From: Desulfatiglandales bacterium
GTDB taxonomy: Bacteria > Desulfobacterota > DSM-4660 > Desulfatiglandales > Desulfatiglandaceae
DNA length: 64,000 nt
Assembly (NCBI GenBank): GCA_963666345.1
Contig: OY762721.1
Coordinates: forward strand, 32,001 to 96,000
Reading direction: 5' to 3'
Of this stretch, positions 3,688-64,000 are shown piece by piece. The stretch's first letter is position 1; each line of letters begins with the position of its first letter. Under the pieces are notes generated by a model. That model made no database searches, had not been told where the DNA came from, and saw nothing but the letters and a program-made list of their open reading frames with translations. The translations under genes were made by a program, and so were the position numbers.

Positions 3688-4323
3688 TGCCAGGAATATT
3701 TTGCTTGACTAGGCCATTTAAATATCAATATATTACATGAAAATGCTCATTAAATTCATAGGTTATATGTCTTTTTCGGTTTAATCGCCTGGATTTCCTC
3801 TTCTCTTCTCTTTTTTCTGCCTTTAGCTCCTATCAGGCGAAACAAGTAACCCTAACGTCTACACCCTGGTTACAAAGATCGTTAGTGCTGTCTGTCATCA
3901 AAACCCCTTGGAATTTGACGAGTGGTCCTGCAGGCATTGGTTTCGGTTTATATGTCGCTCTTGCCTTGGTTGAGGGGGCCCATCAAAATAAATCTGTTTC
4001 ATTATAAGGGGTAAATTCCAAGACGCTTTTATTTTATCCATAAACATATAGGCTTAAAAAAAGAAGCACTCTTGACATATCCTAATCAGTTATGTAGTGG
4101 TATAACAACAGACATTACAAAATGACACAGCGCTTTCATCAAAACCAGCATTAAGACAACGCAAAGGGGGTGGTAAGTCCTCTTAGGAGGTTGGTTTATT
4201 TACCTTTCTGTTTCCTTATGCTTCAGCAATAAGACTTCCAGCCGCTTTTAAGAGCGGGAAGAATCTGTTTGCGTATCAGGAAACAGGTCTCAAATCATTC
4301 ACACCCAAGAAAGGGGGATCATT

Positions 4324-5376
4324 ATGGTAAAGGCATCAAATAAACACACATACGTTACCCTTTTGTTATCCTTAACCATCATTGCGGCTCTTCTTTTCAG
4401 CCTCGCTCCTCAAGCAACAGCAGGAAAAGTACATGAATGGAATTTCTCCCTGTGGGGCGGAAAAAGGGCGTGGAGTTCACCCCTTCATGAATGGGCGGCA
4501 GATATTGAGAAATTTACCAACGGCGGCTGGAAAATCAAACTCCATTATGGAGGAGTTCTGTCACCTCCCAAAGAAAACTGGGACGGAATAAGGGCTGGAA
4601 TGTTCGAGGCGGCGGGGATATGCTGCGCCTATCAGCCAGGTAAAAACCCCCTGCATACCGTAAGCGAACTTCCTTTTATCGCACCTACAGAGAATCGGGA
4701 TATTATACAGATGATGGTGGAGTTGTGGAAGCACCCTGCGCTCAAAAAGGAACTGATGAAATGGAATGCCGTTCCTCTGCTTCCAAGCGCATTGTGCCAG
4801 TATCACATCATGGGCAATAAGCCGGTAAGGACCGTAGCGGATTTGAAAGGTTACAGGATCAGAATGGGAGGAGAAATTGCCAAAGTATTGAAGGAGTTTG
4901 GAGCCGTACCGACCCTGGTTCCCGCTCCCGAAGTATATGAGGCGGTATCCAGAGGCACCATCGATGGCGCGGGTTTCCCCTATACCTATGGCTACGGTGC
5001 GTTCAAGACCTATGAAGTTTCCAAGTATTTGACCATCCCGATGTCTCTTGGAACCATGTCTTGTATCTATGTGGCCAACAAGGATGCCTGGGATGCACTG
5101 CCGGCGGAATGGAAGAAATACCACATGGAGAAATGGTACTACAAAGCACCGGAGATATGGCATCAGGAATTTAAGAAGGCGGATGACAAGTGGATCCCGA
5201 TCTTCAAAAAGCATCTGGAGTTCATAGATTTTCCGAACTCGGAAAGAGAAAAACTGGTTGCCAAGGCCAAAGAGGTCTATGAGAAATGGATTAAGGCTCG
5301 AGAAAAAGAGGGCCTTCCCGGAAGGGACGTCCTTAACTATTACCTGGAAAAAAGAAAAGAATTGATAGGACAATAG
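4324..5376 (+). CDS. dctP: TRAP transporter substrate-binding protein
   Basis: Signal peptide; ELPF, DLKGYRIR and EVYEAVSRGTIDG motifs; followed by dctQM. Confidence 0.92.
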   Translation: MVKASNKHTYVTLLLSLTIIAALLFSLAPQATAGKVHEWNFSLWGGKRAWSSPLHEWAADIEKFTNGGWKIKLHYGGVLSPPKENWDGIRAGMFEAAGICCAYQPGKNPLHTVSELPFIAPTENRDIIQMMVELWKHPALKKELMKWNAVPLLPSALCQYHIMGNKPVRTVADLKGYRIRMGGEIAKVLKEFGAVPTLVPAPEVYEAVSRGTIDGAGFPYTYGYGAFKTYEVSKYLTIPMSLGTMSCIYVANKDAWDALPAEWKKYHMEKWYYKAPEIWHQEFKKADDKWIPIFKKHLEFIDFPNSEREKLVAKAKEVYEKWIKAREKEGLPGRDVLNYYLEKRKELIGQ

Positions 5377-5382
5377 ACCATA

Positions 5383-5419
5383 AAAGACGCCGGAGGAGTT
5401 TCAATCCTCCGGCATCTTT
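5383..5419 (+). terminator. Hairpin between dctP and dctQ (partial terminator or mRNA stabiliser)
   Basis: AAAGACGCCGGAGGA-GTTTCAA-TCCTCCGGCATCTTT inverted repeat directly after the dctP stop. Confidence 0.65.
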
Positions 5420-5451
5420 GAGTCGGAAGAACAGAACCATATGAGGATGAA

Positions 5452-6030
5452 ATGACAAATGAAAAAGATGCCCCTCAGGAGATACTGGATCAACCTGCAT
5501 GGAAACGTTGGGGCCTTGTAAGGGTAATCAACAGCAAGGTCAGGATAGTTGAAGATTGGCTCAATCTCTGCTCGGTTTTCATAATTATGTTCCTCATGTT
5601 TTTTGCAACTGCAGAGATCATAGGCCGCTATGTCTTTAACTTTCCTATTCCGGGCCACGTCGAGATAGTCGAGCTCATAATGGCGGGTATCGTGTTCCTC
5701 GGCATAGCATATACTCAGCGGGTGGGTGGGCACATCAGGATGGAACTCTTTGTCACGCAGGTCCTTAAAGGCAGGGGCTATCATATGGCTGAAATCATTA
5801 CCTCCACCCTATCCCTGTTCGTATATATATTCATAATGTATTATTCCTTCAGGAGTACACTTTATTCTATGGAAGTCGGAGATACTACCGCTTACCTTTA
5901 TTGGCCCACATGGCCGTCAAAAATGCTTATACCCATAGGCTGCCTTTTTCTGTGCATTCGATTCATGATAGAGATCATTCAGCACCTGTGCCAGTTCATT
6001 GCCGGAACTGAGATGAGAAACCTTGATTAG
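5452..6030 (+). CDS. dctQ: TRAP transporter small permease
   Basis: About 4 TM segments; GRYVFNFPIPG and GGHIRMEL motifs. Confidence 0.9.
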   Translation: MTNEKDAPQEILDQPAWKRWGLVRVINSKVRIVEDWLNLCSVFIIMFLMFFATAEIIGRYVFNFPIPGHVEIVELIMAGIVFLGIAYTQRVGGHIRMELFVTQVLKGRGYHMAEIITSTLSLFVYIFIMYYSFRSTLYSMEVGDTTAYLYWPTWPSKMLIPIGCLFLCIRFMIEIIQHLCQFIAGTEMRNLD

Positions 6031-6048
6031 ATACCGGGAGGATAGCTT

Positions 6049-7353
6049 TTGGAACCAATAACAATGGGTATATTTGGCCTTTCAGCCATCTTTATCCTTG
6101 TAGTGCTGGGAATGAGAATCGCCTTTGCCACAGCCCTTGTAGGTTTTGTCGGAATATGGTCCATGAAAAATATCGTGGTGGCAGGCAAAGTGCTCGGCTT
6201 TCTGCCTCATGCCATAGTAGCGCACTACTCACTGAGCGTCATCCCTCTTTTTATCATTATGGGATATTATGCGTACTACGCAGGCTTGACCGATGACATA
6301 TTTCATACGGCCAGACAGTGGATCGGCCACCTGCCCGGAGGGCTGGCCATAGCGACCGTATTCGGATGCGCGGGTTTTGCCGCATGCACAGGCGCCAGCA
6401 CGGCATCGGCTGCCATAATGGGAAGGGTAGCCATCCCTGAAATGAGGAAGTATGGATATCACCCCCGGCTTGCTGCCGGTGTTGTAGCAGCCAGCGGCAC
6501 CCTGGCATCACTAATCCCCCCGAGTGTCGTATTGGTGATATATGGAATAATAACAGAGCAGTCAATCGGTGCTCTGCTAATAGGCGGTTTCATACCTGGT
6601 GTAATATCCGCCGTCATTTATGCGGGCATGATATATGCCAGAGTAAAGATAACGCCTGAACTCGGTAAGTTGCAACCTGCGGTTTCCTGGGGGGAAAGGT
6701 TCAGGTCCCTGAAGGGGACATGGGGCGTGATGTTGCTGATAATACTTATCGTAGGGGGGATCTATTCGGGGGTGTTTACCCCCACCGAGGCTGGGGGGGC
6801 AGGGGCATTTGGTGCCTTTCTAATGGCCCTGGCCATGAGAAGACTTACATTGGCCAGGTTCAAAGAGTCCCTCCTTGAAACAGGCCATACCACAATCATG
6901 ATTTTTTCCATAATAGTCGGAGTGCTCATATTCGTAAGGTTCCTTGCCCTTACGGGGCTTCCCAGGGAGTTTTCCGAGTTTGTACTGGAGCTTCCCCTGC
7001 CGCCTATTGTGGTGATTTTCATGATTCTAGGGATATATGTTTTTCTTGGAATGTTTCTTGATGCCATAGGGATGATGATGCTCACTCTTCCTATTGTTTT
7101 CCCCTCGGTCGTTGCCCTCGGGTTTGACCCTATATGGTTCGGGATAATTCTTGTAAAGATGTGCGAAATCTGTCTTATAACTCCTCCGGTTGGGCTTAAC
7201 GTCTATATCGTGAGAAGCGTTGCCCCTGACATCCCGCTGGAAGAGATATTCAGAGGGATAATCCCTTTTCTTGCAATGGATATACTAACTGTTATACTCT
7301 TTGTCTTGTTCCCTCAGATTATTACCTTTCTGCCGGGCAAGATGGGAATGTAG
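6049..7353 (+). CDS. dctM: TRAP transporter large permease
   Basis: IPLFIIMG, GTLASLIPPS, FTPTEAG and ITPPVGLN motifs; TTG start after a GGAGG SD. Confidence 0.93.
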   Translation: MEPITMGIFGLSAIFILVVLGMRIAFATALVGFVGIWSMKNIVVAGKVLGFLPHAIVAHYSLSVIPLFIIMGYYAYYAGLTDDIFHTARQWIGHLPGGLAIATVFGCAGFAACTGASTASAAIMGRVAIPEMRKYGYHPRLAAGVVAASGTLASLIPPSVVLVIYGIITEQSIGALLIGGFIPGVISAVIYAGMIYARVKITPELGKLQPAVSWGERFRSLKGTWGVMLLIILIVGGIYSGVFTPTEAGGAGAFGAFLMALAMRRLTLARFKESLLETGHTTIMIFSIIVGVLIFVRFLALTGLPREFSEFVLELPLPPIVVIFMILGIYVFLGMFLDAIGMMMLTLPIVFPSVVALGFDPIWFGIILVKMCEICLITPPVGLNVYIVRSVAPDIPLEEIFRGIIPFLAMDILTVILFVLFPQIITFLPGKMGM

Positions 7354-7748
7354 GCTCCCCCGGTTTCTTCACCGGGCTGGGGTATATGACCAGCCATCCC
7401 CCTTTTCAAAGGGGGATGTTGCCGCCCCGCATTATTCGATAAGAAATTTGTTCAATAGACAGAATGACTAACCCAAACCGGTAAGCAAGGGTTGCTGTTG
7501 CCTAAGGGATATGATTTTATCTTATAATTTGGCTGCAAACAACTTTTCCTCCGGCAATGTCTTGGATGCACGATTGACAAAATGTTTTATTACGAGCAAT
7601 TGGCATCGAAAAGTTCTTAAAGCAAAAGAGGGAATTGGGCTTCTTGAGAAATTATATTTACACGAAATTTTCCTTCGTATATATTGTTTCAATCATTAAA
7701 GATTAACAAGCGCCGGAAGTTTAAATCACTCATTTTTGCTGGAAAGCC

Positions 7749-8213
7749 ATGAAAAGACTCAACCCCGAATATGTAAGAGCTGCGACAAAACTGGTTAACG
7801 GTAATCCATACTTCAATCTCCTTTCAATGGAAATGAAAGGCTTTGAACTTGAAAGTTGCACCATGGAGGTGGAGATTCAAAAAAAACACCTCCAGAATTT
7901 CGGCATCGTTCATGGAGGAGTTTGTTCATCTCTTGTCGATGCCGCGGCTTTCTGGGCCGTTTATCCTCAGATAGAAGAAGGCCTTGGAATGATAACTGTC
8001 GAACTGAAGATAAACTTCCTTGCCCGTGCCATGAGCGGATATCTTACGGCCAGGGGAAAAAGCATAAAGGTGGGGAATACGATCTGCCTTGGTGAGGCTA
8101 CGGTTGAAAATAATCAAGGAAGGCTTCTTGCACACGGGACTTCGACAATGATGGTATTAAAAGACCTGGGTATTAAGGGGAGTGAAAGGTTTCCTCCGAA
8201 ATTTCTCGATTGA
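7749..8213 (+). CDS. PaaI-family (hotdog fold) thioesterase
   Basis: QNFGIVHGGVCSSLVD and TVELKINFL motifs. Confidence 0.9.
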   Translation: MKRLNPEYVRAATKLVNGNPYFNLLSMEMKGFELESCTMEVEIQKKHLQNFGIVHGGVCSSLVDAAAFWAVYPQIEEGLGMITVELKINFLARAMSGYLTARGKSIKVGNTICLGEATVENNQGRLLAHGTSTMMVLKDLGIKGSERFPPKFLD

Positions 8214-53950: not shown

Positions 53951-55107
53951 GCAGGTTTGCGAGAACACTTTTAACAGGGATCACGCTTTTTTTAATATCT
54001 TTACCTGTCTACTGTAATGCGCTCGAAGAAACAACCCGGGATATTCTGGCCATGGGTTCTGCAGAAATATCAGAGGGTAATGTTGCCTCTGCAAAAAAAT
54101 TGGCCTTAAGCAGAGGTCTTCAAAAAGGGGTTGAGGGATTTCTGGTAAACAGGCTGGGAGGACAGGGTGCCGTCAACAATTTTGAAAGGTTGATACTTGA
54201 AGTTTTACCTAAGGCAGAGGAGCTTATAGAAAACTTTACCATAATCAGCGAGTATCAGTCCGGAAAAAATCTAAATCTGCTAGTAAGGCTAAAAATCGAT
54301 GAGACCATGATGGAGGAGCGATTTCGTATGGCAGGCCTGCTTGTCAATGAAGGAGCCCCTTTAAAGGTTTTGTTCATGGTGGCGGAGATAAGAGAAGGCA
54401 CACCATCCTTCTGGTGGGAAGAGCCCGAAGCGAGCAGGATTATGGGGTCGACAGAGATTATCCTTCAGAACGTCTTCAGGGAAAAGGGTTTTGAACCGAT
54501 AAACTGGTTGCAGAATATTCCAGACGCCGACATCCCTGAAGAGGTTAGGGTCCTTGAACCGGAAAATGCTTCTATCGCAAAACTGGGAAGGCTATATGAG
54601 GCGGATCTGGTGATACATGGAAAAAACAGGATTTCATCGGACTCGGTGGGACTGGCCGTTTCAGTAATAGGGGCGGATGACGGTCTTTTCATGGGCGGTG
54701 GGACTTATTTTGTGGACATAGAGGAAGGTATTACCTCCCAGGATCAGCAAATGGAAATACTCAAAAAGCTTGCAGTCTCCTTTGCAGATGACGTTACGCC
54801 TGAGATACTTTCAAAAACAGCCGAGACCCAAAAAAAGATTAATTCCCTCACTGTTTCCCTGGAGGGCCTGAGTTCTTTTAAGGAATTACTTGTTTTCAGA
54901 GATTTTCTGAAAAATAGTGTAAAAGGCGTGGCTTCAGTCAAACAGAAAAGGGTAAAAAGAGGGTCAGCATCACTTGACGTGGAATTTAAGGGAGAAAGGG
55001 ACCTGTTTGTAAGCAGAGTGATGAACCATGAAGACCTGCCTCTTCCCCTTATGGAAGGAAAGGGAGACGGTGAAGGCATACTGTTTTTGATCGAGAACAT
55101 AAGGTGA
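53947..55107 (+). CDS. Exported hypothetical protein (FlgT-N-like start)
   Basis: Signal peptide; GSAEI..GNVASAKKLAL; ATGA overlap with miaA. Confidence 0.7.
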   Translation: MSRFARTLLTGITLFLISLPVYCNALEETTRDILAMGSAEISEGNVASAKKLALSRGLQKGVEGFLVNRLGGQGAVNNFERLILEVLPKAEELIENFTIISEYQSGKNLNLLVRLKIDETMMEERFRMAGLLVNEGAPLKVLFMVAEIREGTPSFWWEEPEASRIMGSTEIILQNVFREKGFEPINWLQNIPDADIPEEVRVLEPENASIAKLGRLYEADLVIHGKNRISSDSVGLAVSVIGADDGLFMGGGTYFVDIEEGITSQDQQMEILKKLAVSFADDVTPEILSKTAETQKKINSLTVSLEGLSSFKELLVFRDFLKNSVKGVASVKQKRVKRGSASLDVEFKGERDLFVSRVMNHEDLPLPLMEGKGDGEGILFLIENIR

Positions 55108-55235
55108 TCTGAACGATTGAAAAACAGGTCCCAGGAACCTTTTACAGGATTGAATCGAAGAAAAACCATAACCAGAGATATTTAACTTGGAGCAACCTTT
55201 ATTTTCTGTCTTTTCTCATTTATATATAAATCATT

Positions 55236-55790
55236 ATGCCTATCGCCAGAGATATAACTGTCCCTAATGTTATAACCATACTCAGGATAATTCTTGCCCC
55301 GATATTTGTAATATACCTGATACACGAGCAAGTTACATCGGCCCTTGTAGTGTTCATACTGGCAGGGATAAGTGACGGGCTGGACGGATTGATCGCAAGG
55401 GCTTTCAACCAGAAGAGTGAGATGGGGGCCTATCTGGACCCGTTGGCAGATAAACTGCTTCTTATCTCCGCTTATGTGGCGTTGGCTGCCAAGGGCTTTA
55501 TGCCCGCCTGGTTGACCGTAATAGTGATAAGCAGAGATGTACTCATACTTTTGGGTGTTCTTATTCTTTTTCTAGTAAAATCAGGTTTTACTGTAAAGCC
55601 TCTTTTCCTTAGCAAGATAACCACATGTTTTCAGATTGCATCAGTCATCGTTGTACTCACCATGGGGCAATTCTTTTTTTCCCAACTTATTTATAAGTAT
55701 CTATATTGGGCAACCGGTATAGTAACGATTTTGTCGGGGCTTCAGTATATAAGACAATGGCTGGGGTTGATGGATGAGGAGGGGCTTTAA
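55236..55790 (+). CDS. CDP-alcohol phosphatidyltransferase (PgsA-like)
   Basis: PNVITILR and DGLDGLIAR...GAYLDPLADK motifs. Confidence 0.92.
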   Translation: MPIARDITVPNVITILRIILAPIFVIYLIHEQVTSALVVFILAGISDGLDGLIARAFNQKSEMGAYLDPLADKLLLISAYVALAAKGFMPAWLTVIVISRDVLILLGVLILFLVKSGFTVKPLFLSKITTCFQIASVIVVLTMGQFFFSQLIYKYLYWATGIVTILSGLQYIRQWLGLMDEEGL

Positions 55791-55861
55791 GAGCCGGTTC
55801 CAATAAATACGGCTTGACATCACGCAGCCAGATTGATAATTAGGCTTTTAACATTTCAAAC

Positions 55862-55936
55862 AGGCACGTAGCTCAGGGGGAGAGCACTACCCTGACACGG
55901 TAGGGGTCAAGGGTTCAAATCCCTTCGTGCCTACCA
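55862..55936 (+). tRNA. tRNA-Val(GAC)
   Basis: AGGCACG/CGTGCCT acceptor stem, anticodon loop CTGACAC, CCA. Confidence 0.97.
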
Positions 55937-55944
55937 GTAAATTC

Positions 55945-55978
55945 AAGGGGTTACGGTTTTTGACCGCAACCCTTTTTT
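55945..55978 (+). terminator. Terminator after tRNA-Val(GAC)
   Basis: AAGGGGTTACGGT...ACCGCAACCC followed by T6. Confidence 0.7.
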
Positions 55979-56034
55979 GATAAAATCACCAACTTTGATA
56001 CCTACAGTACACTCGCGATCGGTTTGCTTTTATA

Positions 56035-56667
56035 TCATGCGGGTCCGATTGAATGATAAGTTATGAGATAATTGAGCTTTTCGAGCTGAAAAGGGGAAAG
56101 GTTAAGAAATTTTACCCCCCTATGCCGGAGATGTTTTGTAATAAACGAGTCTTCGGCCTGAATATCGAAATCAGATACGGTCCTAAAAGGTACTCCCTGC
56201 AGATTGAACCCGTTTCCCCTTAGAAATATATCCATCTCAAAGGCTTCTACCATAGAAGATCCTTTTGGATTGTATCGGAAGGCAAGGCCACCCAGGCTTA
56301 TATCTCTGACATTTCCGTAAATACTTGTCATCTTGGGCCTTGCAATCACCCCCCCCGTTAGCAGGTGTCTTAAATGTCTTCTTTTCTCAGCGCTGTGTGT
56401 CTCGGCTGAAGTAAAATTGCCTGGTTTGCCGTAATGAGATACCGAACCATTCGGTTCAGAGGAGAGGGTGCTTCTTATCAAGACCCTTTTTGTCCCTTCG
56501 GTTCTGAACCACTGGGGCAGTTTTCCAGGAGTATCTCTCCTTTGAGCACATTTACGTCGTTCAATACCGTTTTTGCGAAAATAGTCAAGGTCGTAGGACT
56601 TCCTTCTGTCTCTGTTTTTTCGTCTTTCCATATCAACCATACACCTTCCGAAAAATAAATGGTCCAT
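56035..56667 (-). CDS. PilZ-domain protein with N-terminal ERR/DRR repeats
   Basis: EKRRHLR and DISLGG motifs; N-terminal ERRKNRDRR..ERR..QRR. Start is uncertain. Confidence 0.78.
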   Translation of the reverse strand: MDHLFFGRCMVDMERRKNRDRRKSYDLDYFRKNGIERRKCAQRRDTPGKLPQWFRTEGTKRVLIRSTLSSEPNGSVSHYGKPGNFTSAETHSAEKRRHLRHLLTGGVIARPKMTSIYGNVRDISLGGLAFRYNPKGSSMVEAFEMDIFLRGNGFNLQGVPFRTVSDFDIQAEDSFITKHLRHRGVKFLNLSPFQLEKLNYLITYHSIGPA

Positions 56668-57296
56668 CCGGGTAACGAGTACAACTAAAAATAACTTAGT
56701 ATTAACTAATTATATTGACAAGCTATTCATCTATCAAAGCATCATTAATCATGTACAAGGGATTAAAATCATAAAAGCCGCTATGCAATAGAGTTATTGT
56801 GAAAAGTTTAAACCGCAGGTATTCATTAACCGGAAGATCGAAATAAATTTTCCAATACAAATTTTTGATAGAATTATACCAAAAACATTACTGAAGAGCA
56901 ACTTTATTGTTGAAAAATTGACCTTAAGCACATTTCTTGGGTTTTTATCCGAGTTTACAGAAAGAGTCTGCGCTATTATTCCATGATAAAAAAAGCAGTG
57001 CACTTTTTTTCTGAGGAAAGTCGCGAAAAAATTGTGCTGTCTTAATGGATCGGAAAAAGTGCCTGAAACCGTGGAACTGCTTAGTTCCGCTGTGTTTTGA
57101 AGTAGCGGAATCCATTAACCCAAGGCGTTATAGACGCTTTAGAATGCTTTTAGGCATTATGAAATATTTGGCATAACGACCTGCCTCATTTCAAAGGTCA
57201 ACCCGCCATGGCCTGTGGGTGGAATTCTATCCGGAATAAGGTGGCGACGAATATGGCTTGAATTTACAGAGTGAATTTAAAAACCGTGATGCCGGG

Positions 57297-57325
57297 TTGA
57301 CAGTAAAACTATTTTTCCATATATT
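57297..57325 (+). promoter_or_regulatory. Sigma70 promoter of the trpS leader
   Basis: TTGACA-17 nt-TATATT. Confidence 0.7.
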
Positions 57326-57371
57326 TGATCAACGTTTAAAGTAACAAAACATACCAAGGGCAGTAACAATC

Positions 57372-57461
57372 ATGAACAACTCCTATTCAAGAGAATTTCT
57401 ACTTTGGCGTGTTTGGCGCTTAGGAGATGTTTGTGCAATCTGCCTGATAGATTCTGTTTGA
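57372..57461 (+). CDS. Trp leader peptide (29 aa) of the trpS attenuator
   Basis: MNNSYSREFLLWRVWRLGDVCAICLIDSV* with two Trp codons; lies between the promoter and the terminator upstream of trpS. Confidence 0.75.
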   Translation: MNNSYSREFLLWRVWRLGDVCAICLIDSV

Positions 57462-57485
57462 CATCGTTAATAAAAAGATCAACAG

Positions 57486-57522
57486 AAGCCTCAGGCTGGA
57501 AAAGGTGCCTGGGGCTTTTTTT
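57486..57522 (+). terminator. Attenuator terminator upstream of trpS
   Basis: AAGCCTCAGGC...GCCTGGGGCTT with T7; the 5' arm can alternatively pair with GCCTGA (57442-47). Confidence 0.8.
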
Positions 57523-57558
57523 ATTGTGCATATAAATTACCTCGGAAAGGAGCAGTAA

Positions 57559-58536
57559 ATGGATAAAGGGATAATAATGAGCGGAATTCAACCTACGGGA
57601 GATATACATATAGGAAATTATTTGGGGGCCATACGCCAGTGGGTTGAATTGACAAAGGATCATGAGTGCTTTTATGTGATAGTGGATTACCATGCCATTA
57701 CGATTGATTATGATATTGAAAATTTTCAAAAAAATATCTTTAATGCAGCCATGGTCAATATCGCATGCGGACTGGAACCTGGAACCTGTCACCTTTTCAT
57801 CCAATCCCATATCCCCGAAATCCTTGAACTCAACTGGATTTTGGCTTCCTGCACAATGGTGGGACGATTGACCAACATGACGCAGTTTAAAGATAAATCG
57901 GCTCAGCACGAGGCCAATATAAATGCGGGTCTTTTGAATTATCCCATCTTGATGGCGGCAGACATATTGATCTATAAGGCATCTCTTGTACCTGTGGGAG
58001 AGGACCAGTTCCAGCACCTCGAATTCTCAAGAGAGGTTGCTCGCCGATTTAATTCCCGTTTTGGACAAACCTTTGCGGAGCCAATTCCGTGTGGTAAACC
58101 TGGACGGGTACTCGGGCTGGACGGGAAAGATAAAATGTCGAAAAGCCGCAATAATTATATCGGTATCATGGATAGTCCCGAAGATGCGTGGAAAAAGCTG
58201 GCACCGGCAAAAACCGACGTCCAGCGTGTCCGCAGATCCGACACTGGAAGACCCTGGATGTGTAACGTCTATTCCTATCATGAATTTTTCACCCCAGAGG
58301 ACGTCCGGAAAGGCTGTTATGAAGACTGTCAGAAAGCAAAAATCGGGTGTGTGGACTGTAAGAAGATCCTTCATAGATACATGACGGAGGCCCTTAAGCC
58401 TATCCAGAAAAGATACAGAGAATTGGAAAAACAACCGGATGTTGTAAAAGATTTTCTTATGCAAAGTGCGAGCGAAGCAAGACAGGTCGCACGTAACACA
58501 ATGGAAGAGGTGCGGAGGAAGATGGGAACCAGATAG
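57559..58536 (+). CDS. trpS: Tryptophanyl-tRNA synthetase
   Basis: SGIQPTG.IHIGNYLGA, YPILMAADIL, VPVGEDQ and KMSKS motifs. Confidence 0.97.
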   Translation: MDKGIIMSGIQPTGDIHIGNYLGAIRQWVELTKDHECFYVIVDYHAITIDYDIENFQKNIFNAAMVNIACGLEPGTCHLFIQSHIPEILELNWILASCTMVGRLTNMTQFKDKSAQHEANINAGLLNYPILMAADILIYKASLVPVGEDQFQHLEFSREVARRFNSRFGQTFAEPIPCGKPGRVLGLDGKDKMSKSRNNYIGIMDSPEDAWKKLAPAKTDVQRVRRSDTGRPWMCNVYSYHEFFTPEDVRKGCYEDCQKAKIGCVDCKKILHRYMTEALKPIQKRYRELEKQPDVVKDFLMQSASEARQVARNTMEEVRRKMGTR

Positions 58537-58806
58537 ACATGTTTCAATCTTTTAAGAATATCTATTGAATGAAATCAAGGTGGTAAAAAAGGGACCGGGC
58601 ATACTGCCTGAAATGAAGAATTCCGGCGCGGATGACGACTGGGGTGGGGCGTTGGTCTATCCTTGAGAGGGTTAAGTGTGGCGTGTCAGCGCTTAAAATG
58701 CCTAAAGTGATAAGGTGCATGGAATGGATGAAACCTAGGAATTTTGCAATTTTTCCCCGAGCCGGACCTCTCAAGTCCTCCTTAATGAAACAGCCTGATA
58801 GCGTTT

Positions 58807-59616
58807 TTAAAGTGAAGGCGATGAATTTAGCCCTATCCGATCTCTCAGATAGCGGTAGAAATGGTGAAATTCGTTTGTTTCTTTTCTTCTGGGTCTTTTA
58901 AGCGATACATCAACAATCAACTTTATGCTACCGGGATATTTATCCATTACAAGTATACGATCTGCCAAAAAAGCCGCTTCCGTGATATCATGAGTCACAA
59001 AAATAATCGTATGCCGGAGTTCCTCCCAGAGAGACAAAAGAAGACTCTGCATCTCTTCTCTCGACTGGGCGTCAAGGGATCCGAAAGGTTCATCCATCAG
59101 CAGAAGTTTCGGGTCTAAGACAAGGACCCTTGCGAGGGCAACCCGCTGTTTCATTCCGCCTGAGATCTCTGACGGAAGATATCTTCCGAAACCTTCAAGC
59201 CCCGTCAGGTAAAGAAATTTCCCAACCCTTTTTTTGATTTCTCTTTTATTTATTCGGCCCTTGAGACCAAAAGCGATATTTTCTTCAACTGTCAGCCAAG
59301 GGAAAAGGGCATCTTCCTGAAACACAATGCAGCGTTCAAATCCAGGCCCCGATATGGGGACGCCATGAGTCTCAATGCGGCCGCTGCTCGGCTTTATAAA
59401 TCCGGCGACGATCTTCAGAAGGGTGGTTTTTCCACAACCGCTCGGTCCAAGAATGCAGACCAATTCTCCTGAATTAACCGAAAGATTTATATTTTCAAGT
59501 ACTTTTATGAAATGGTTACCCATGGGAAAAATTTTGCCAAGTCCCACAGATCTTAACAAAGGATCTCTGTGTGCTTTTTTCTTAACTGATATCAGCCTGA
59601 AGTCATGTTCTTTCAA
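58807..59616 (-). CDS. ABC ATP-binding protein (SsuB/TauB-like)
   Basis: GPSGCGKT, LFPWLTV, SGGMKQR and MDEPFGSLD motifs. Confidence 0.93.
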   Translation of the reverse strand: MKEHDFRLISVKKKAHRDPLLRSVGLGKIFPMGNHFIKVLENINLSVNSGELVCILGPSGCGKTTLLKIVAGFIKPSSGRIETHGVPISGPGFERCIVFQEDALFPWLTVEENIAFGLKGRINKREIKKRVGKFLYLTGLEGFGRYLPSEISGGMKQRVALARVLVLDPKLLLMDEPFGSLDAQSREEMQSLLLSLWEELRHTIIFVTHDITEAAFLADRILVMDKYPGSIKLIVDVSLKRPRRKETNEFHHFYRYLRDRIGLNSSPSL

Positions 59617-60485
59617 TAAGTCCTCCGTGCGCTTTTAAAGCAGAGACGAAGAACGGCCTTTAACGACAGGTCGCTTATCCTGCCCAGAACGGCAATAATT
59701 ATAACGCCCACAAGGATTATATCAATACGCCCCAGCATGCGGGCGTCCATGATAACGGCACCCAGACCGTCCGGCACCCCGGTGAGTTCACCAAGAACAA
59801 GATATGCCCAAGCTATTCCCAGGCCCAATCGTAATCCGGTAATTATCTGAGGCATGGCGGCGGGAAGAAGGATTGCATATATCCCTCTTATTTTCCCTAC
59901 CCCCATCATCGCCCCTGACTGATATAATAAAGGATTTATAAGACGAGCACCTGATGCCGAATTTATGTAGATCGGGAAAAAGGCTGCCAACGCTACCAGA
60001 AAGACGGTTGTCTTTATTCCTATACCGAACCATACGAGAGCGAGCGGCAACCAGCATATACCGGGGACCGCCCTTATGGCGTTAAGCGTACTGCTTATGA
60101 AAAGCTGGAACGACTTCAGCCGGCCCGAAAGAATTCCAAGGGGAATGCCGAGAAAGGCCGCAATACCGAAGCCGATAGAAACTCTCAGGATACTGTAGCT
60201 TACGTCGTTAATAAATCGGCCTGCATAGGGGCCGTCCACTGGATTTCCGAAAATGTAAAAATATGCTGATTCGGCTATGTTCAGGGGATGAGGAAAAAGG
60301 TATGGAGTGGTTAGCTTTAACTCGGAAATGACGACCCATATGAGAAGCAATAATAGGGGTATGATCCATGGGAGCGCCTTTTTGCTGGCCCATGAAACTC
60401 CTTTTTCACCTGATGCGCTTCTATTCATGAGTAAAGGCAGGTCTCCTTTATAACTGCTTAAAATCTTTTTGGATGCGTTCCACAA
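59613..60485 (-). CDS. ABC permease (SsuC/TauC-like)
   Basis: WLPLALVWFGIG and ITGLRLGLGIAW motifs. True start may be 60428. Confidence 0.9.
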   Translation of the reverse strand: MWNASKKILSSYKGDLPLLMNRSASGEKGVSWASKKALPWIIPLLLLLIWVVISELKLTTPYLFPHPLNIAESAYFYIFGNPVDGPYAGRFINDVSYSILRVSIGFGIAAFLGIPLGILSGRLKSFQLFISSTLNAIRAVPGICWLPLALVWFGIGIKTTVFLVALAAFFPIYINSASGARLINPLLYQSGAMMGVGKIRGIYAILLPAAMPQIITGLRLGLGIAWAYLVLGELTGVPDGLGAVIMDARMLGRIDIILVGVIIIAVLGRISDLSLKAVLRLCFKSARRTY

Positions 60486-61416
60486 AACTCATGTCAAATA
60501 GCTTTTTATAGTCAGGCTGTCTTGTTATCACTTTAAGCTCCATCATGCGTTCTCCAAGGTTCATGGCCTTAATTAAGAAATCCTCGTCCATCTTCCAGGA
60601 AAGTTCCATATTGGCAGCGGCGCTTTCAAGGATCTCTCGTGAGGTGCCGAAGGTGGAGGCCTTTTTTAACCAACCGTCCCTGTCTTGAGTGAGAAATTTT
60701 GTGGCGGCCGCATGGGCCTTAACAAGTCTGTGGACCGCTTCCCGGTTTTTTTCTATAAACCTGCGGGTTACCAGCATCCCGGCATTTATGGTTCCTATGG
60801 CGTTGTCATAATAAGGATAGGAAAGAATTCTGCCGTAACCCTTTACAGTCGCGATAGTAGGGAAGGGTTCGCCTGATAGAAATGCATCTATACCTCCCTT
60901 GGCAAGAGCTATACCCATGTCGAAGAAATCGACCCTTGTTAGTTTTACATCGGTGTTGGGAGAAAGTCCGTTTCTCTTGAGTGTTTCCCTTAGAAGAATT
61001 TCATGCATGGTTCCAGGGACGTAACCTATTTTTCTGCCCCTTAGATTTGAGACTGTTTCAATGGGGGATTCTTTTCTTACCACGAGGGCCGAGCATTTAT
61101 TGCACAGCGATGCTACAAGAACTACGGGCTGCCCAAGGGATGCTGAATGAATGGCATGTGCAATTGTGGTACCGCACATGTCAAGGCTGCCTGCAAGAAG
61201 GCCCGTTTTCTGATCAGCCGGGTTGGTAAAACTGAAAACCTGGCATTTGTCACCCTTAGGAAGAAAGTCTTTATAGAAAAATGGTTGAATAGTCTGAGGC
61301 GTTTTCCATGTCCCGACCTTAAATTCCTCTCCAGCACTGTTATCTGGAGAAAAAAAGATATAAACGATAAGAAAAAGCGCAAAAAAACTTTTGTATCGGG
61401 ACATGACAATTTCCAT
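60448..61416 (-). CDS. ABC substrate-binding protein (SsuA/NMT1/NrtA-like)
   Basis: Signal peptide; NLRGRKIG and ALAKGGIDAFLSGEPF motifs. Confidence 0.9.
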   Translation of the reverse strand: MEIVMSRYKSFFALFLIVYIFFSPDNSAGEEFKVGTWKTPQTIQPFFYKDFLPKGDKCQVFSFTNPADQKTGLLAGSLDMCGTTIAHAIHSASLGQPVVLVASLCNKCSALVVRKESPIETVSNLRGRKIGYVPGTMHEILLRETLKRNGLSPNTDVKLTRVDFFDMGIALAKGGIDAFLSGEPFPTIATVKGYGRILSYPYYDNAIGTINAGMLVTRRFIEKNREAVHRLVKAHAAATKFLTQDRDGWLKKASTFGTSREILESAAANMELSWKMDEDFLIKAMNLGERMMELKVITRQPDYKKLFDMSFVERIQKDFKQL

Positions 61417-61441
61417 GGCTTATTTTGAAAAACCTGTTTGT

Positions 61442-62482
61442 TCAACTTAAGGTAACTGAAACAAGTCTTTTGGCAACATTGTTTTCAAAACAGTTTGAAG
61501 GCAGATCAGGATTCCACCCTGTTTCCATGTGCATTTTTCTACATTTGTCTGTCCCATATCCGCGCCCCTTTTCAGTATCCGCATTACAGTCACGGGGACT
61601 TGAACCCACCTCAGGAAAAAAGAGATTGGCACCGGCCACGAGAGCGAGTTTGTTAGGTTCGTGGGTGCAGTGGGCCCTCGGCTGATTTCCCATCACCAGC
61701 CTTGATACGGCGACAAGCCTGGCCATTTCAAGCTCGGTTATCATTCCGTAGCATTCCATCGGTGAACCAGGAAAGTTTATCCTTCTCATAACGCCGCTGT
61801 ATGTCGCCTTATATTGCCTGGCCAGAAGCATCAACTCGGCTATTTCTTCATGACCGTGTTCAGGTCCCACCGGTTCGATGCAGTTCATCCATCTAAGTCC
61901 CACGTCATTCAGAACCTTAATCGTGTTTATTCGTTTCTGCGGGGAAAGGGGGGTATCGCGTCCCTCTGCAAGACGGAGAGCATGGTAGGCGCCTACAAAT
62001 CCGGCCTCCAGCAGGGCCTCAGCTTCTTTATGGGTGATATCTCTCGTGTTTGCAACAAGCGGAGTCGAAACGCTTTGTTTTAAAATTGAGCCTATTTTAA
62101 GAAGCCTTTTAAAGCTGTAGTTGCCTGTGGTCATTAAATTGAGTGCATCAGCGCCTTGGGCTTCTGCTCCTTTTGCCCAGTTGATGACCTGTTTAAGGCT
62201 GAAATCAAGAGAATCGGTAAAGGCACCTGTTTTTTCAGCCAATGAGCAGAATTTGCAGTTCACAGGGCATGGTGCCACATTGAGGCCGATATGAAAATGG
62301 TTTTCTCCTTTGTCATTGAATTGATCGTGGGACATAGCATTGGCGGCTTGAAGAAGTGCGTATATCTCCTTGCCGTATAGGGGTAGAGATAAAAGATGAA
62401 GGATATCCTCTTTCTTAAGCGGTTCAAAATCGATTGCCTTTGCAAGAATGTCTTCAACCTTTTGTGATATACGCCAGCTCAT
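61442..62482 (-). CDS. Radical SAM protein, BioB/HydE/PylB-like, function unknown
   Basis: CPVNCKFC (CxxxCxxC); BioB-like N-terminus; C-terminal CTHEPN..AGANLFFPEVGSSPRD. Confidence 0.88.
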   Translation of the reverse strand: MSWRISQKVEDILAKAIDFEPLKKEDILHLLSLPLYGKEIYALLQAANAMSHDQFNDKGENHFHIGLNVAPCPVNCKFCSLAEKTGAFTDSLDFSLKQVINWAKGAEAQGADALNLMTTGNYSFKRLLKIGSILKQSVSTPLVANTRDITHKEAEALLEAGFVGAYHALRLAEGRDTPLSPQKRINTIKVLNDVGLRWMNCIEPVGPEHGHEEIAELMLLARQYKATYSGVMRRINFPGSPMECYGMITELEMARLVAVSRLVMGNQPRAHCTHEPNKLALVAGANLFFPEVGSSPRDCNADTEKGRGYGTDKCRKMHMETGWNPDLPSNCFENNVAKRLVSVTLS

Positions 62483-62522
62483 TTATAACCCCTTCGATTG
62501 ACCTTTACGGGATTTATGAAAT

Positions 62523-62538
62523 AACAATCTTTATGCCA
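62523..62538 (-). promoter_or_regulatory. Possible sigma54 (-24/-12) promoter
   Basis: TGGCATAAAGATTGTT about 40 nt before the radical SAM ATG; the -12 element is GT rather than GC. Confidence 0.4.
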
Positions 62539-62695
62539 TCTTTCTGATTCCAGGGGTTAAGGGCCCGGCAAAGCACATATAGCTTTATCAAATCTGTAGA
62601 TATCGGTCTGGAAGAAAGGCATCTTGAAAAACTATCAAGCGTGTCTGATATTATAAAGAATTTGATCTTTTATTCAAAGAATAATTCATCGGCAT

Positions 62696-62971
62696 TTATT
62701 CACCGCATGAATATCGAACCGACCTTGGACCGTATCTGTCAGGTGCCCATCCCACGATGATCGCAGTTATACAAAAGGTAGACATATTCATAGAGAAGAT
62801 ATCGGAGGTACCGCTTCTGGATATGCTGAATTCATTTTCAATGGGAACAAGAAAAACACCATAACTGTAACGCACACCAAGGCCTGCTGTCGCAAAAAAC
62901 AGCCCTGCGGCAGTAATGAGCCAATCGCAGAATATCTTATTTTTTTCATCGCATAGCAGAAAAAAACGCAA
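62696..62971 (-). pseudogene. Truncated MFS transporter fragment
   Basis: Only the first two TM helices and motif A are present (RYSYGVFLVPIENEF...GWAPDRYGPR), then a stop. Confidence 0.65.
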
Positions 62972-63236
62972 AAGGATTAAGGAGATTTCATGAGAAATAT
63001 AGCATTATTGATAAAAGGTTAGCTGTTTATAATAACATTAATGGATGTATTTCCCCGGTTTCAGTAAGGGATGAAAAGCAATCCGTTACTCTGTTTGTTG
63101 TCCTCATAACTTTACAAAAAATGGAGTTTTTGAAATACTCCAAATAATTTACGTTTAGCAACGGCTCTCAACAAACATATAAAAAGGAAGTTTCACGTAC
63201 CGGTAATGAAAACATAGACCATCGGAGTTGGAAATT

Positions 63237-64000
63237 TTGAAACGTGTTTTAATAGCATTTCTGATACTCATTACGCTGGCTGTCCTTGCTGCTGGCTGCA
63301 CGGGCGGATATCTGTGGTATGTCTGGTCAAGCAACCTGCCCTATGTGGGCGTTGTAGAGGAATACCGTCCCCCCATAATAACTGAAATCTACAGCATGAA
63401 AGGTGAAACAATAGGAAGGTTCTGGGATGAAAAACGTATGGTAGTTCCTCTTGAACAGATGCCCGGACATCTGATTCACGCTTTTGTCGCTGCAGAGGAT
63501 TCACGATTTTTCAAGCATGAAGGGGTTGATATAAAGAGTATCTTCAGGGCATTTTTAAAGAATATCAGCGCCGGAAAGATAGAACAGGGAGGAAGTACAA
63601 TAACACAACAGGTAACAAAGTCCCTTCTCCTGAAGAATACGGAAAGGACTTACAGGAGAAAGGTAAGAGAAGCCATCCTTTCCGTTCAGTTAGAAAAGAC
63701 ATTCTCAAAGGAACGCATCCTTTTTCTGTATCTGAACCAGATTTACCTGGGGCAGGGCGCATACGGCGTGGAAGCTGCGGCCAGGACATATTTTAATAAA
63801 TCGGTGGGTGAACTTGATATCTCTGAATCTGCAATTTTGGCGGGGCTTCCCCAGGCACCGGCAAGATATTCTCCCGTCAAACACTTCGAACTGGCAAAAA
63901 AAAGACAGTTGTATGTGCTGGAAAGGATGCTTAAGGAAGGGTATATAAGTGAAGGCGAGCACAAAAAGGCCCTGAACAAGCCGCTTTTGATACAGGAAAA
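63237..64000 (+). CDS. mrcA: Penicillin-binding protein 1A (transglycosylase domain), runs off the window
   Basis: Not in the ORF track. TTG start after GGAG; N-terminal anchor; AAEDSRFFKHEGVD, QGGSTITQQ, RKVRE and YLNQIYLG motifs. Confidence 0.93.
   Translation, partial: MKRVLIAFLILITLAVLAAGCTGGYLWYVWSSNLPYVGVVEEYRPPIITEIYSMKGETIGRFWDEKRMVVPLEQMPGHLIHAFVAAEDSRFFKHEGVDIKSIFRAFLKNISAGKIEQGGSTITQQVTKSLLLKNTERTYRRKVREAILSVQLEKTFSKERILFLYLNQIYLGQGAYGVEAAARTYFNKSVGELDISESAILAGLPQAPARYSPVKHFELAKKRQLYVLERMLKEGYISEGEHKKALNKPLLIQE

Follow-up and report, generated by a model that had tools for sequence, protein, structure and literature searches.

The 64,000-nt stretch of DNA analysed here (the window) comes from a Desulfatiglandales bacterium (contig OY762721.1, positions 32,001 to 96,000) and carries on its minus strand a module of four tightly packed, co-oriented genes for an enzyme of the radical S-adenosylmethionine (SAM) type and an ATP-binding cassette (ABC) importer. 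In the order of transcription these are the enzyme gene (62482..61442, 346 aa), assigned from the open reading frame (ORF) list together with Pfam and NCBIfam, the gene for a substrate-binding protein (SBP) that is of NMT1/SsuA (NitT/TauT) type (61416..60448, 322 aa; Pfam NMT1 and NMT1_2), the permease gene (60485..59613, 290 aa as listed; Pfam BPD_transp_1) and the ATPase gene (59616..58807, 269 aa; Pfam ABC_tran). The enzyme and SBP genes are separated by a gap of 25 nt, the SBP and permease genes overlap by 38 nt and the permease and ATPase genes overlap by 4 nt. A permease start at the internal ATG 60428 would turn the 38-nt overlap into a 19-nt gap. An earlier note, made from the letters of the window, had described this gene set, and it is confirmed by the ORF list, Pfam and NCBIfam. 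The motifs quoted in the same note, namely CxxxCxxC, YHALRLAEG, CTHEPN and GANLFFPEVGSSPRD in the enzyme and LCNKC in the SBP, are all found in the translations and are conserved among orthologues.

Conservation of the module was followed in the best 80 of 117 relatives of the enzyme from species-representative genomes, which are 56-68% identical to it, with gene order taken from tblastn. These orthologous loci are nearly all from Desulfobacterota. The order radical SAM enzyme, SBP, permease and ATPase, all co-oriented, is seen in 58 of the 80 loci, and 12 more are co-oriented but interrupted by a contig end. Four Syntrophales loci have the ABC genes adjoining the enzyme gene on the opposite strand. 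The remaining six have no SBP gene, and one of them is uninformative because its contig ends 175 nt past the enzyme gene. The ABC genes therefore adjoin the enzyme orthologue in 74 of the 79 informative loci, and the linkage, whose non-conservation the earlier note had named beforehand as a result that would speak against its proposal, has held. The median gap between the enzyme and SBP genes is about 63 nt among these loci, and the two orthogroups show parallel identity ranges. Linkage of the enzyme and the importer is far beyond chance.

The module is an accessory trait with a patchy distribution. Of 151 genomes sampled evenly from the phylum, 14 have a member of the enzyme family (E<=1e-20) and 4, the window's genome included, have an orthologue, and the sampled genomes that share the family and order of the window's genome have no orthologue. 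The family of Desulfosarcina alkanivorans (the Desulfosarcina family below) carries the module in 17 of 41 genomes. D. alkanivorans itself and Desulfatibacillum alkenivorans are carriers in culture.

A radical SAM enzyme outside BioB, HydE and PylB

The enzyme scores 20 bits against the Pfam model Radical_SAM (PF04055), which is under the cut-off of 29.5. It is nevertheless a radical SAM protein, as all 71 family sequences have C72, C76 and C79 and the modelled barrel matches BioB and HydE. The AlphaFold2 model built from the 71-sequence family alignment has a predicted local distance difference test score (pLDDT) of 95.9 and a predicted template modelling score (pTM) of 0.93. A Foldseek search with this model gave template modelling (TM) scores of 0.81 for the type II BioB 8vdw, 0.77-0.80 for HydE, 0.78 for PylB and 0.73 for E. 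coli BioB, with a sequence identity of 15-18% to each of these structural neighbours. When the profile of the enzyme family was compared with the structures, 8vdw was again the top match (E 4.6e-24), followed by HydE (1.5e-18), the type I BioB 1r30 (3.3e-17) and PylB (9.3e-14).

The curated models for the three enzymes do not accept the protein. The BioB model TIGR00433 scores 49.4 bits against a cut-off of 225, the PylB model TIGR03910 scores 18.4 bits against 348.2, and the HydE model TIGR03956 gives no match at E 0.01. The genome of the window, which is 96.7% complete, has no match to HydE or HydG at E 1e-5. The earlier note described a BioB-like frame without the BioB motif and named clustering with BioB, HydE or PylB as a result against its proposal; the enzyme does not cluster with them, to judge from the failing models and the identity of about 16%. 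It is a member of a separate, unnamed family with the full barrel fold of these three enzymes.

This family is widespread. An exhaustive search at E<=1e-3 returned 540 clusters at 50% identity, of which one is close (P0121, 63% identity) and the next relatives are 30-44% identical. They are named either 'radical SAM protein' or, by automatic annotation, 'biotin synthase', and the names in the ESM Atlas are likewise generic. Fusions occur in the family (among P0122, P0211, P0224, P0248, P0201, P0206 and P0169), in which the partner is another radical SAM domain, AhpC/TSA, DUF5714 or a PadR-type winged helix. The fused DUF5714 matches the model of the metal-binding selenoprotein MbdU, and one tandem duplication also occurs in the family.

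The residues of the enzyme agree with BioB at some positions and depart from it at others. Besides C72-x3-C76-x2-C79, its motifs are YHALRLAEG (166-174), CTHEPN (272-277) and GANLFFPEVGSSPRD (284-298). In the alignments C201 matches the cluster cysteine that both types of BioB have on beta-5, but the BioB cluster cysteines of beta-2 and beta-3 are not kept, with N115 and V143/A144 found there, and YHALRL stands where BioB has YNHNLD/YHSNIE. We take the aligned BioB residues to be the auxiliary-cluster cysteines on beta-2, beta-3 and beta-5 and the Asn-rich dethiobiotin motif. The enzyme is thus like BioB (type I 1r30, type II 8vdw/8vcw) in its (beta-alpha)8 barrel, the place of its CxxxCxxC motif, the cysteine at the end of beta-5 and its top profile match, and unlike it in its other cluster cysteines and substrate motif and in having neither a bio context nor a BirA operator. 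Four further cysteines are found in the orthogroup, C201 and C272 in all 81 sequences, C331 in 77 and C314 in 70. An auxiliary Fe-S site in the orthogroup enzyme is possible on the strength of this alignment.

Nearly invariant polar residues in the 71-sequence alignment are N145, Y166, H167, R170, E173, E203, H209, R234 and R297. As in PylB, many conserved charged residues line the barrel, which is expected of an enzyme with a small polar substrate. The resemblance to PylB does not extend to its curated model or its setting, as pyl genes are not nearby. HydE, whose 5'-deoxyadenosyl (5'-dA) radical adds to sulfur, is a possible model for the chemistry of the enzyme, but the conserved residues of the two proteins differ. 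No bio, hyd, thi or pyl gene adjoins the module, as the earlier note had observed; its flanks are trpS (convergent), a 91-aa remnant of a major facilitator superfamily (MFS) gene and a transglycosylase gene.

The importer and its binding protein

The three remaining gene products, a BPD_transp_1 permease, an ABC_tran ATPase and a secreted SBP, make up a binding-protein-dependent ABC importer. The SBP scores 71.8 bits against Pfam NMT1 (cut-off 20.5) and 65.3 bits against NMT1_2, and residues 1-29 were called by inspection as an N-terminal Sec-type signal peptide. It stays under the cut-off of the NCBIfam model SsuA_fam, TIGR01728 (126.9 bits against 163.5). The permease scores 68.6 bits against BPD_transp_1, over the cut-off, and 131.6, 122.4 and 109.4 bits against the NCBIfam models SaoP, SsuC and TauC, all sub-cut-off. 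The ATPase scores 111.8 bits against ABC_tran, also over the cut-off, while its matches to SaoA (239.7 bits) and to the taurine ATPase model (230.3 bits) are sub-cut-off.

The importer has the same three-component architecture as SsuABC and TauABC and is built from the same families. SsuABC and TauABC are linked to the oxygenase systems SsuD/SsuE or TauD, whereas the importer of the module is linked to a radical SAM enzyme. It differs further in that all its subunits fall under the equivalog or subfamily cut-offs and in the cysteines of its SBP, one of them an invariant hinge residue and two others usually present. The LCNKC motif of the SBP lies at 104-108. C105 is conserved in 69 of 69 orthologues, C81 in 61 and C108 in 51.

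Where do these cysteines lie relative to the binding site? The solved structures nearest to the SBP are those of E. coli SsuA (2x26, E 3.5e-11) and X. citri SsuA, and its residues were mapped through a HMMER alignment onto the X. citri numbering given in the available portion of the structure paper (PMC3839906). The residues that coordinate the sulfonate are named there as Gln36, Gly68, Gly86 and Ser141. In this mapping the invariant C105 aligns to Thr109, the final residue of hinge 1. T84 aligns to the sulfonate ligand Gly86, with C81 three residues earlier, and M137, beside T136, aligns to Ser141; Gln36 and Gly68 fall outside the aligned stretch. The helix-start architecture of the anion site seems to be kept, with thiols apparently added at the cleft.

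A comparable case is the SAO transporter SaoX/SaoP/SaoA, for which the available part of the report describes an SsuA-like SBP with conserved cleft cysteines (10.1101/2022.07.06.499078). SaoP and SaoA are also the best NCBIfam matches of the module's permease and ATPase. However, the module scores far under the cut-offs of this system (SaoX 56.7 of 300, SaoP 131.6 of 295 and SaoA 239.7 of 360), the cysteine positions of its SBP differ from those given in that part of the report, it has no selenocysteine and the other sao genes are absent. The enzyme represents a new family of a known class, and the importer linked to it is of an ordinary type, except that its SBP bears cysteines in an unusual way. 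The earlier note could name no characterised system of this composition, and none was found in full-text literature searches.

Substrate and chemistry

Genes that recur near the orthologues point to the kind of compound that may be handled. A MerA/Lpd-like flavin adenine dinucleotide (FAD) disulfide oxidoreductase is found in 17 of the 80 loci, where the MerA-like gene sits upstream of the module, DUF547 in 10 and Zwf in 6; DUF3047 (5), TIGR04282/TIGR04283 transferases (5), Gnd (4) and AhpC (4) are rarer, and no further genes recur there. A triad of DedA, DUF547 and a MerA-like FAD oxidoreductase follows the module in one locus (L078) and occurs elsewhere in the window's genome, at C1:1885840-1888760. 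Among relatives of about 40% identity, rhodanese is near 5 of 10 annotated loci, and other such loci have TusA-DsrE, DsbD-thioredoxin, family 2 glycosyltransferases, DedA, a sulfite-oxidase-like enzyme, a sulfotransferase, or Psr-like molybdoenzymes accompanied by a TrsS-like radical SAM protein. The common thread of the predicted functions of these neighbours and of the fused domains is sulfur/selenium trafficking and thiol redox.

In the explanation favoured here, the secreted SsuA-type SBP, the permease and the ATPase would import a small, probably anionic compound, on which the cytoplasmic radical SAM enzyme would then act. In the most likely chemistry, the 5'-dA radical would react at one of the compound's soft atoms, which may be S, Se or As. 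This may be an adenosylation of the soft atom in the manner of HydE and ArsS, or a BioB-like making or breaking of bonds in which Cys201, Cys272 and Cys331 take part. What is formed would most likely feed the TIGR04282/TIGR04283 transferase pathway, with the module standing in for ArsS. It is quite probable that the enzyme and the importer share one substrate. For soft-atom chemistry the chances are a little short of even, and the overall explanation, uptake and subsequent radical chemistry at a soft atom, is offered tentatively, as somewhat less probable than that. The earlier note had proposed that a single small molecule, perhaps a cofactor precursor or sulfur compound, is taken up and then converted by radical chemistry. 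This is still the best reading, the evidence for it being the gene linkage and the themes of the neighbourhood.

A role in place of ArsS is suggested by both chemistry and distribution. In the reaction of ArsS the 5'-dA radical is joined to an organoarsenical, according to the accessible part of the report (10.64898/2026.04.29.721666), and the titles of HydE structure entries in the PDB include an S-adenosyl-L-cysteine product. Since ArsS adds 5'-dA to an organoarsenical and the structural neighbour HydE adds it to sulfur, the module may offer another way into the same pathway. In some genomes a radical SAM enzyme of either kind lies beside the TIGR04282/TIGR04283 pair, and ArsS and the module have an either/or distribution. 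TIGR04283 is present in 44 of 44 module genomes. ArsS is found over the cut-off in only 6 of these 44. Among the phylum-sample genomes that carry TIGR04283 the figure is 48 of 68, with the two genes no more than 5 kb apart in at least 19 of the 48. Within the Desulfosarcina family, ArsS occurs in 1 of 17 genomes with the module and 10 of 24 without it (Fisher p 0.014, for kin that are not independent). Members of the enzyme family occur in 7 of the 20 phylum-sample genomes that have TIGR04283 but no ArsS, in 1 of the 48 that have both and in 6 of the 83 without TIGR04283. In one locus (L077) the transferase genes come directly after the ATPase gene of the module, and in another (L090) a relative of the enzyme adjoins TIGR04282/TIGR04283 in the usual place of ArsS. 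The window's genome has a TIGR04282/TIGR04283 fusion and ArsS was not found in it; its best matches to the ArsS model TIGR04167 (44.9 and 35.5 bits, cut-off 300) lie at 3.42 Mb, away from the enzyme gene of the module. A full-text search of the literature found no functional study of TIGR04282/TIGR04283.

Some observations on the pathway genes may be added. In the window's genome (L094, C1:1863000-1881000) the fused TIGR04282/TIGR04283 gene lies beside a gene for a DVU0298-family HEAT-repeat protein, and nearby the alpha subunit of a formate dehydrogenase is in two ORFs (5965-7023 and 4321-5952) that are probably joined by a selenocysteine codon. Many Desulfobacterota matches to TIGR04167 hold one in-frame TGA, which fits a selenoprotein form of ArsS.

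Even so, it is unlikely, if somewhat short of far-fetched, that the module substitutes for ArsS. ArsS belongs to another radical SAM family, is often a selenoprotein and has no importer. Slightly more doubtful still is the complete scheme, in which an importer and a radical SAM enzyme would replace ArsS at the entry step of an 'arsenosugar-type' TIGR04282/TIGR04283 pathway in many anaerobic Desulfobacterota, with an external soft-centre compound (an organoarsenical, selenium or sulfur compound) bound through the hinge cysteine, imported and adenosylated by addition of the 5'-dA radical.

Several results weigh against these proposals. TIGR04283 is about as common in Desulfosarcina-family genomes with the module (14 of 17) as in those without it (20 of 24), so its presence in all 44 module genomes is an effect of lineage. 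In the same family, both ArsS and the module are missing from ten of the 34 genomes that carry TIGR04283. The transferase genes adjoin the module in only 5 of the 80 loci, and in the window's genome they are 1.8 Mb away from it. A transporter is missing from 5 of the 79 informative orthologous loci and from 12 of 12 loci of relatives at 30-42% identity. The extra cysteines of the enzyme are not general in the wider family (C201, C272 and C331 in 45, 32 and 35 of 71 sequences), and this poor conservation makes the auxiliary cluster uncertain. Of the SBP cysteines, C81 is replaced by Thr in 8 of 69 proteins, and in 18 of 69 the residue at C108 is Ser or Ala. Across the 80 loci, none of the four proteins has an in-frame stop opposite a conserved cysteine, which speaks against a replacement by selenocysteine. 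The genome counts themselves compare related genomes, many of which are incomplete metagenome-assembled genomes.

Among radical SAM enzymes, those of the class formed by BioB, HydE and PylB catalyse some of the most unusual reactions, and the family of 540 clusters adds to this class. A dedicated SBP can fish out its substrate directly, so that the reaction can be approached by experiment. Should the either/or pattern with ArsS be functional, the module would point to a novel route for the uptake and transformation of organo-arsenic, selenium or sulfur compounds in sediment sulfate reducers, and such a route would be relevant to metalloid and sulfur cycling. If the compound is also adenosylated as in the complete scheme, the enzyme would be a second, evolutionarily independent one for this kind of carbon-heteroatom bond formation.

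Could the imported compound be a sulfonate? In anaerobic use of organosulfonates, the enzyme would be an oxygen-independent C-S lyase or mutase that releases sulfite for respiration. The SBP is indeed nearest to SsuA, and its Gly/Thr-rich helix starts (G82-T83-T84 and G135-T136) appear to lie at the positions of the sulfonate ligands named in the available portion of the X. citri paper. A patchy module with an orthologue in 4 of 151 genomes and none in others of its family and order fits an accessory catabolic trait, relatives of the enzyme have sulfur-metabolism neighbours, and glycyl radical enzymes serve known anaerobic desulfonation, as far as the accessible parts of the sources go. The SBP, however, does not reach the SsuA_fam cut-off, and genes for the handling of aldehydes, sulfite or amines are not recurrent beside the module. 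A cysteine-lined hinge is no feature of SsuA in the available portion of PMC3839906. Organosulfonate use is judged improbable.

A similarly small chance is given to an arrangement in which the genes are neighbours without a shared substrate. The enzyme would mature a cofactor or a protein and the transporter would bring in an unrelated nutrient under the same regulon. The transporter-less loci of orthologues and of more distant relatives are consistent with this, as are the fusions to PadR domains and the tandem duplication in the family, which are unlike a simple catabolic enzyme. It is difficult to reconcile with adjacency that is kept in 74 of 79 loci and in several orders, that survives the inversion of the ABC genes in Syntrophales, and that is accompanied by parallel identity ranges of the enzyme and SBP orthogroups.

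Biotin metabolism was considered because of the gene content of the window's genome, which is assembled as a single contig. BioB, BioD and BioA were not found over the cut-off in this genome, its remaining BioB-like matches being LipS1, LipS2 and LipA, and birA-bioY is present. The organism looks like a biotin auxotroph from this gene content, and with birA-bioY present salvage of dethiobiotin was attractive at first. In this reading the enzyme would resemble biotin synthase, as a third type that inserts sulfur, and would finish a desthio precursor brought in by the importer, such as dethiobiotin, which would become biotin. Type II BioB is its nearest neighbour in structure and sequence, C201 falls on the beta-5 cluster cysteine, and canonical BioB is rarer in module genomes (17 of 44) than in the phylum sample (105 of 151). 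Dethiobiotin salvage by BioB-only bacteria is documented in the accessible part of PMC9561691. The depletion of BioB disappears within the Desulfosarcina family, where BioB is equally common with the module (7 of 17) and without it (12 of 24), and is therefore an effect of lineage; moreover, 17 module genomes hold canonical BioB as well. The score against the BioB model, the absent beta-2 and beta-3 cysteines and YHALRL in the place of YNHNLD also oppose sulfur insertion. A perfect palindrome, TTGTCGACC-N14-GGTTGACAA, which lies in a 17-nt inverted repeat 5' of birA (helix-turn-helix and biotin protein ligase domains) and bioY (L085 337-382, C1:1269739-1269784), is likely a BirA operator, but a search of the genome found no palindrome of this type near the module. 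The suggestion in the earlier note of a cofactor precursor is disfavoured for biotin, and sulfur-insertion salvage is considered very improbable. Copies of the palindrome with one mismatch are at C1:925814 and C1:3917596, and the genome carries LipA/LipB in addition to LipS1/LipS2-like genes (L082-L084).

That the enzyme is a divergent but true BioB, HydE or PylB, which the common fold class and CxxxCxxC position might suggest, is largely refuted by its scores against the curated models (BioB 49 of 225, PylB 18 of 348, HydE no match at E 0.01), by identities of about 16% to each and by a genome without HydE or HydG, and is extremely improbable.

Regulation and other features of the loci

The possible sigma-54 promoter of the earlier note comes down to one imperfect match. 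The sequence TGGCAT-N5-TTGTT lies on the minus strand at 62538..62523, about 40 nt 5' of the start of the radical SAM gene, and has GT rather than GC at -12. The sigma-54 pattern is found in 0 of 77 orthologous upstream regions (-300..+90), and a looser pattern is found in 12 of the 77 loci against a background of 0.21 per stretch, which is no enrichment. A gene for a sigma-54 activator is upstream in 8 of the 80 loci. It is doubtful that the site is a functional element. Further upstream of the operon, a sigma-70-like pair, TTGAAT-16-TATAAT (62650..62677, minus strand), is a candidate promoter of a type whose matches are at chance level (6 found, 8.0 expected). Rfam gave no regulatory RNA in positions 55000-64000 of the window or in 20 orthologous loci.

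The only Rfam match in that part of the window is a tRNA gene at 55862-55933 on the plus strand (69.9 bits), whose neighbours on either side are a gene for a CDP-alcohol phosphatidyltransferase and a 210-aa ORF without a Pfam match. The 91-aa ORF directly upstream of the module (62696-62971, minus strand) has a weak, sub-cut-off match to MFS_1 (22 bits) and appears to be the remnant of the N-terminal part of a transporter gene. In the transporter-less locus of Desulfamplus magnetovallimortis (L009), a repeat of about 130 nt is present twice directly upstream of the enzyme orthologue (7740-8000). Three loci with a sigma-54 activator upstream (L029, L031 and L063) have in common the sequence TTTACATTTTTT..GATGCGTTATCTTTG and variants of it, about 100-150 nt 5' of the enzyme gene, which may be a promoter or an operator.

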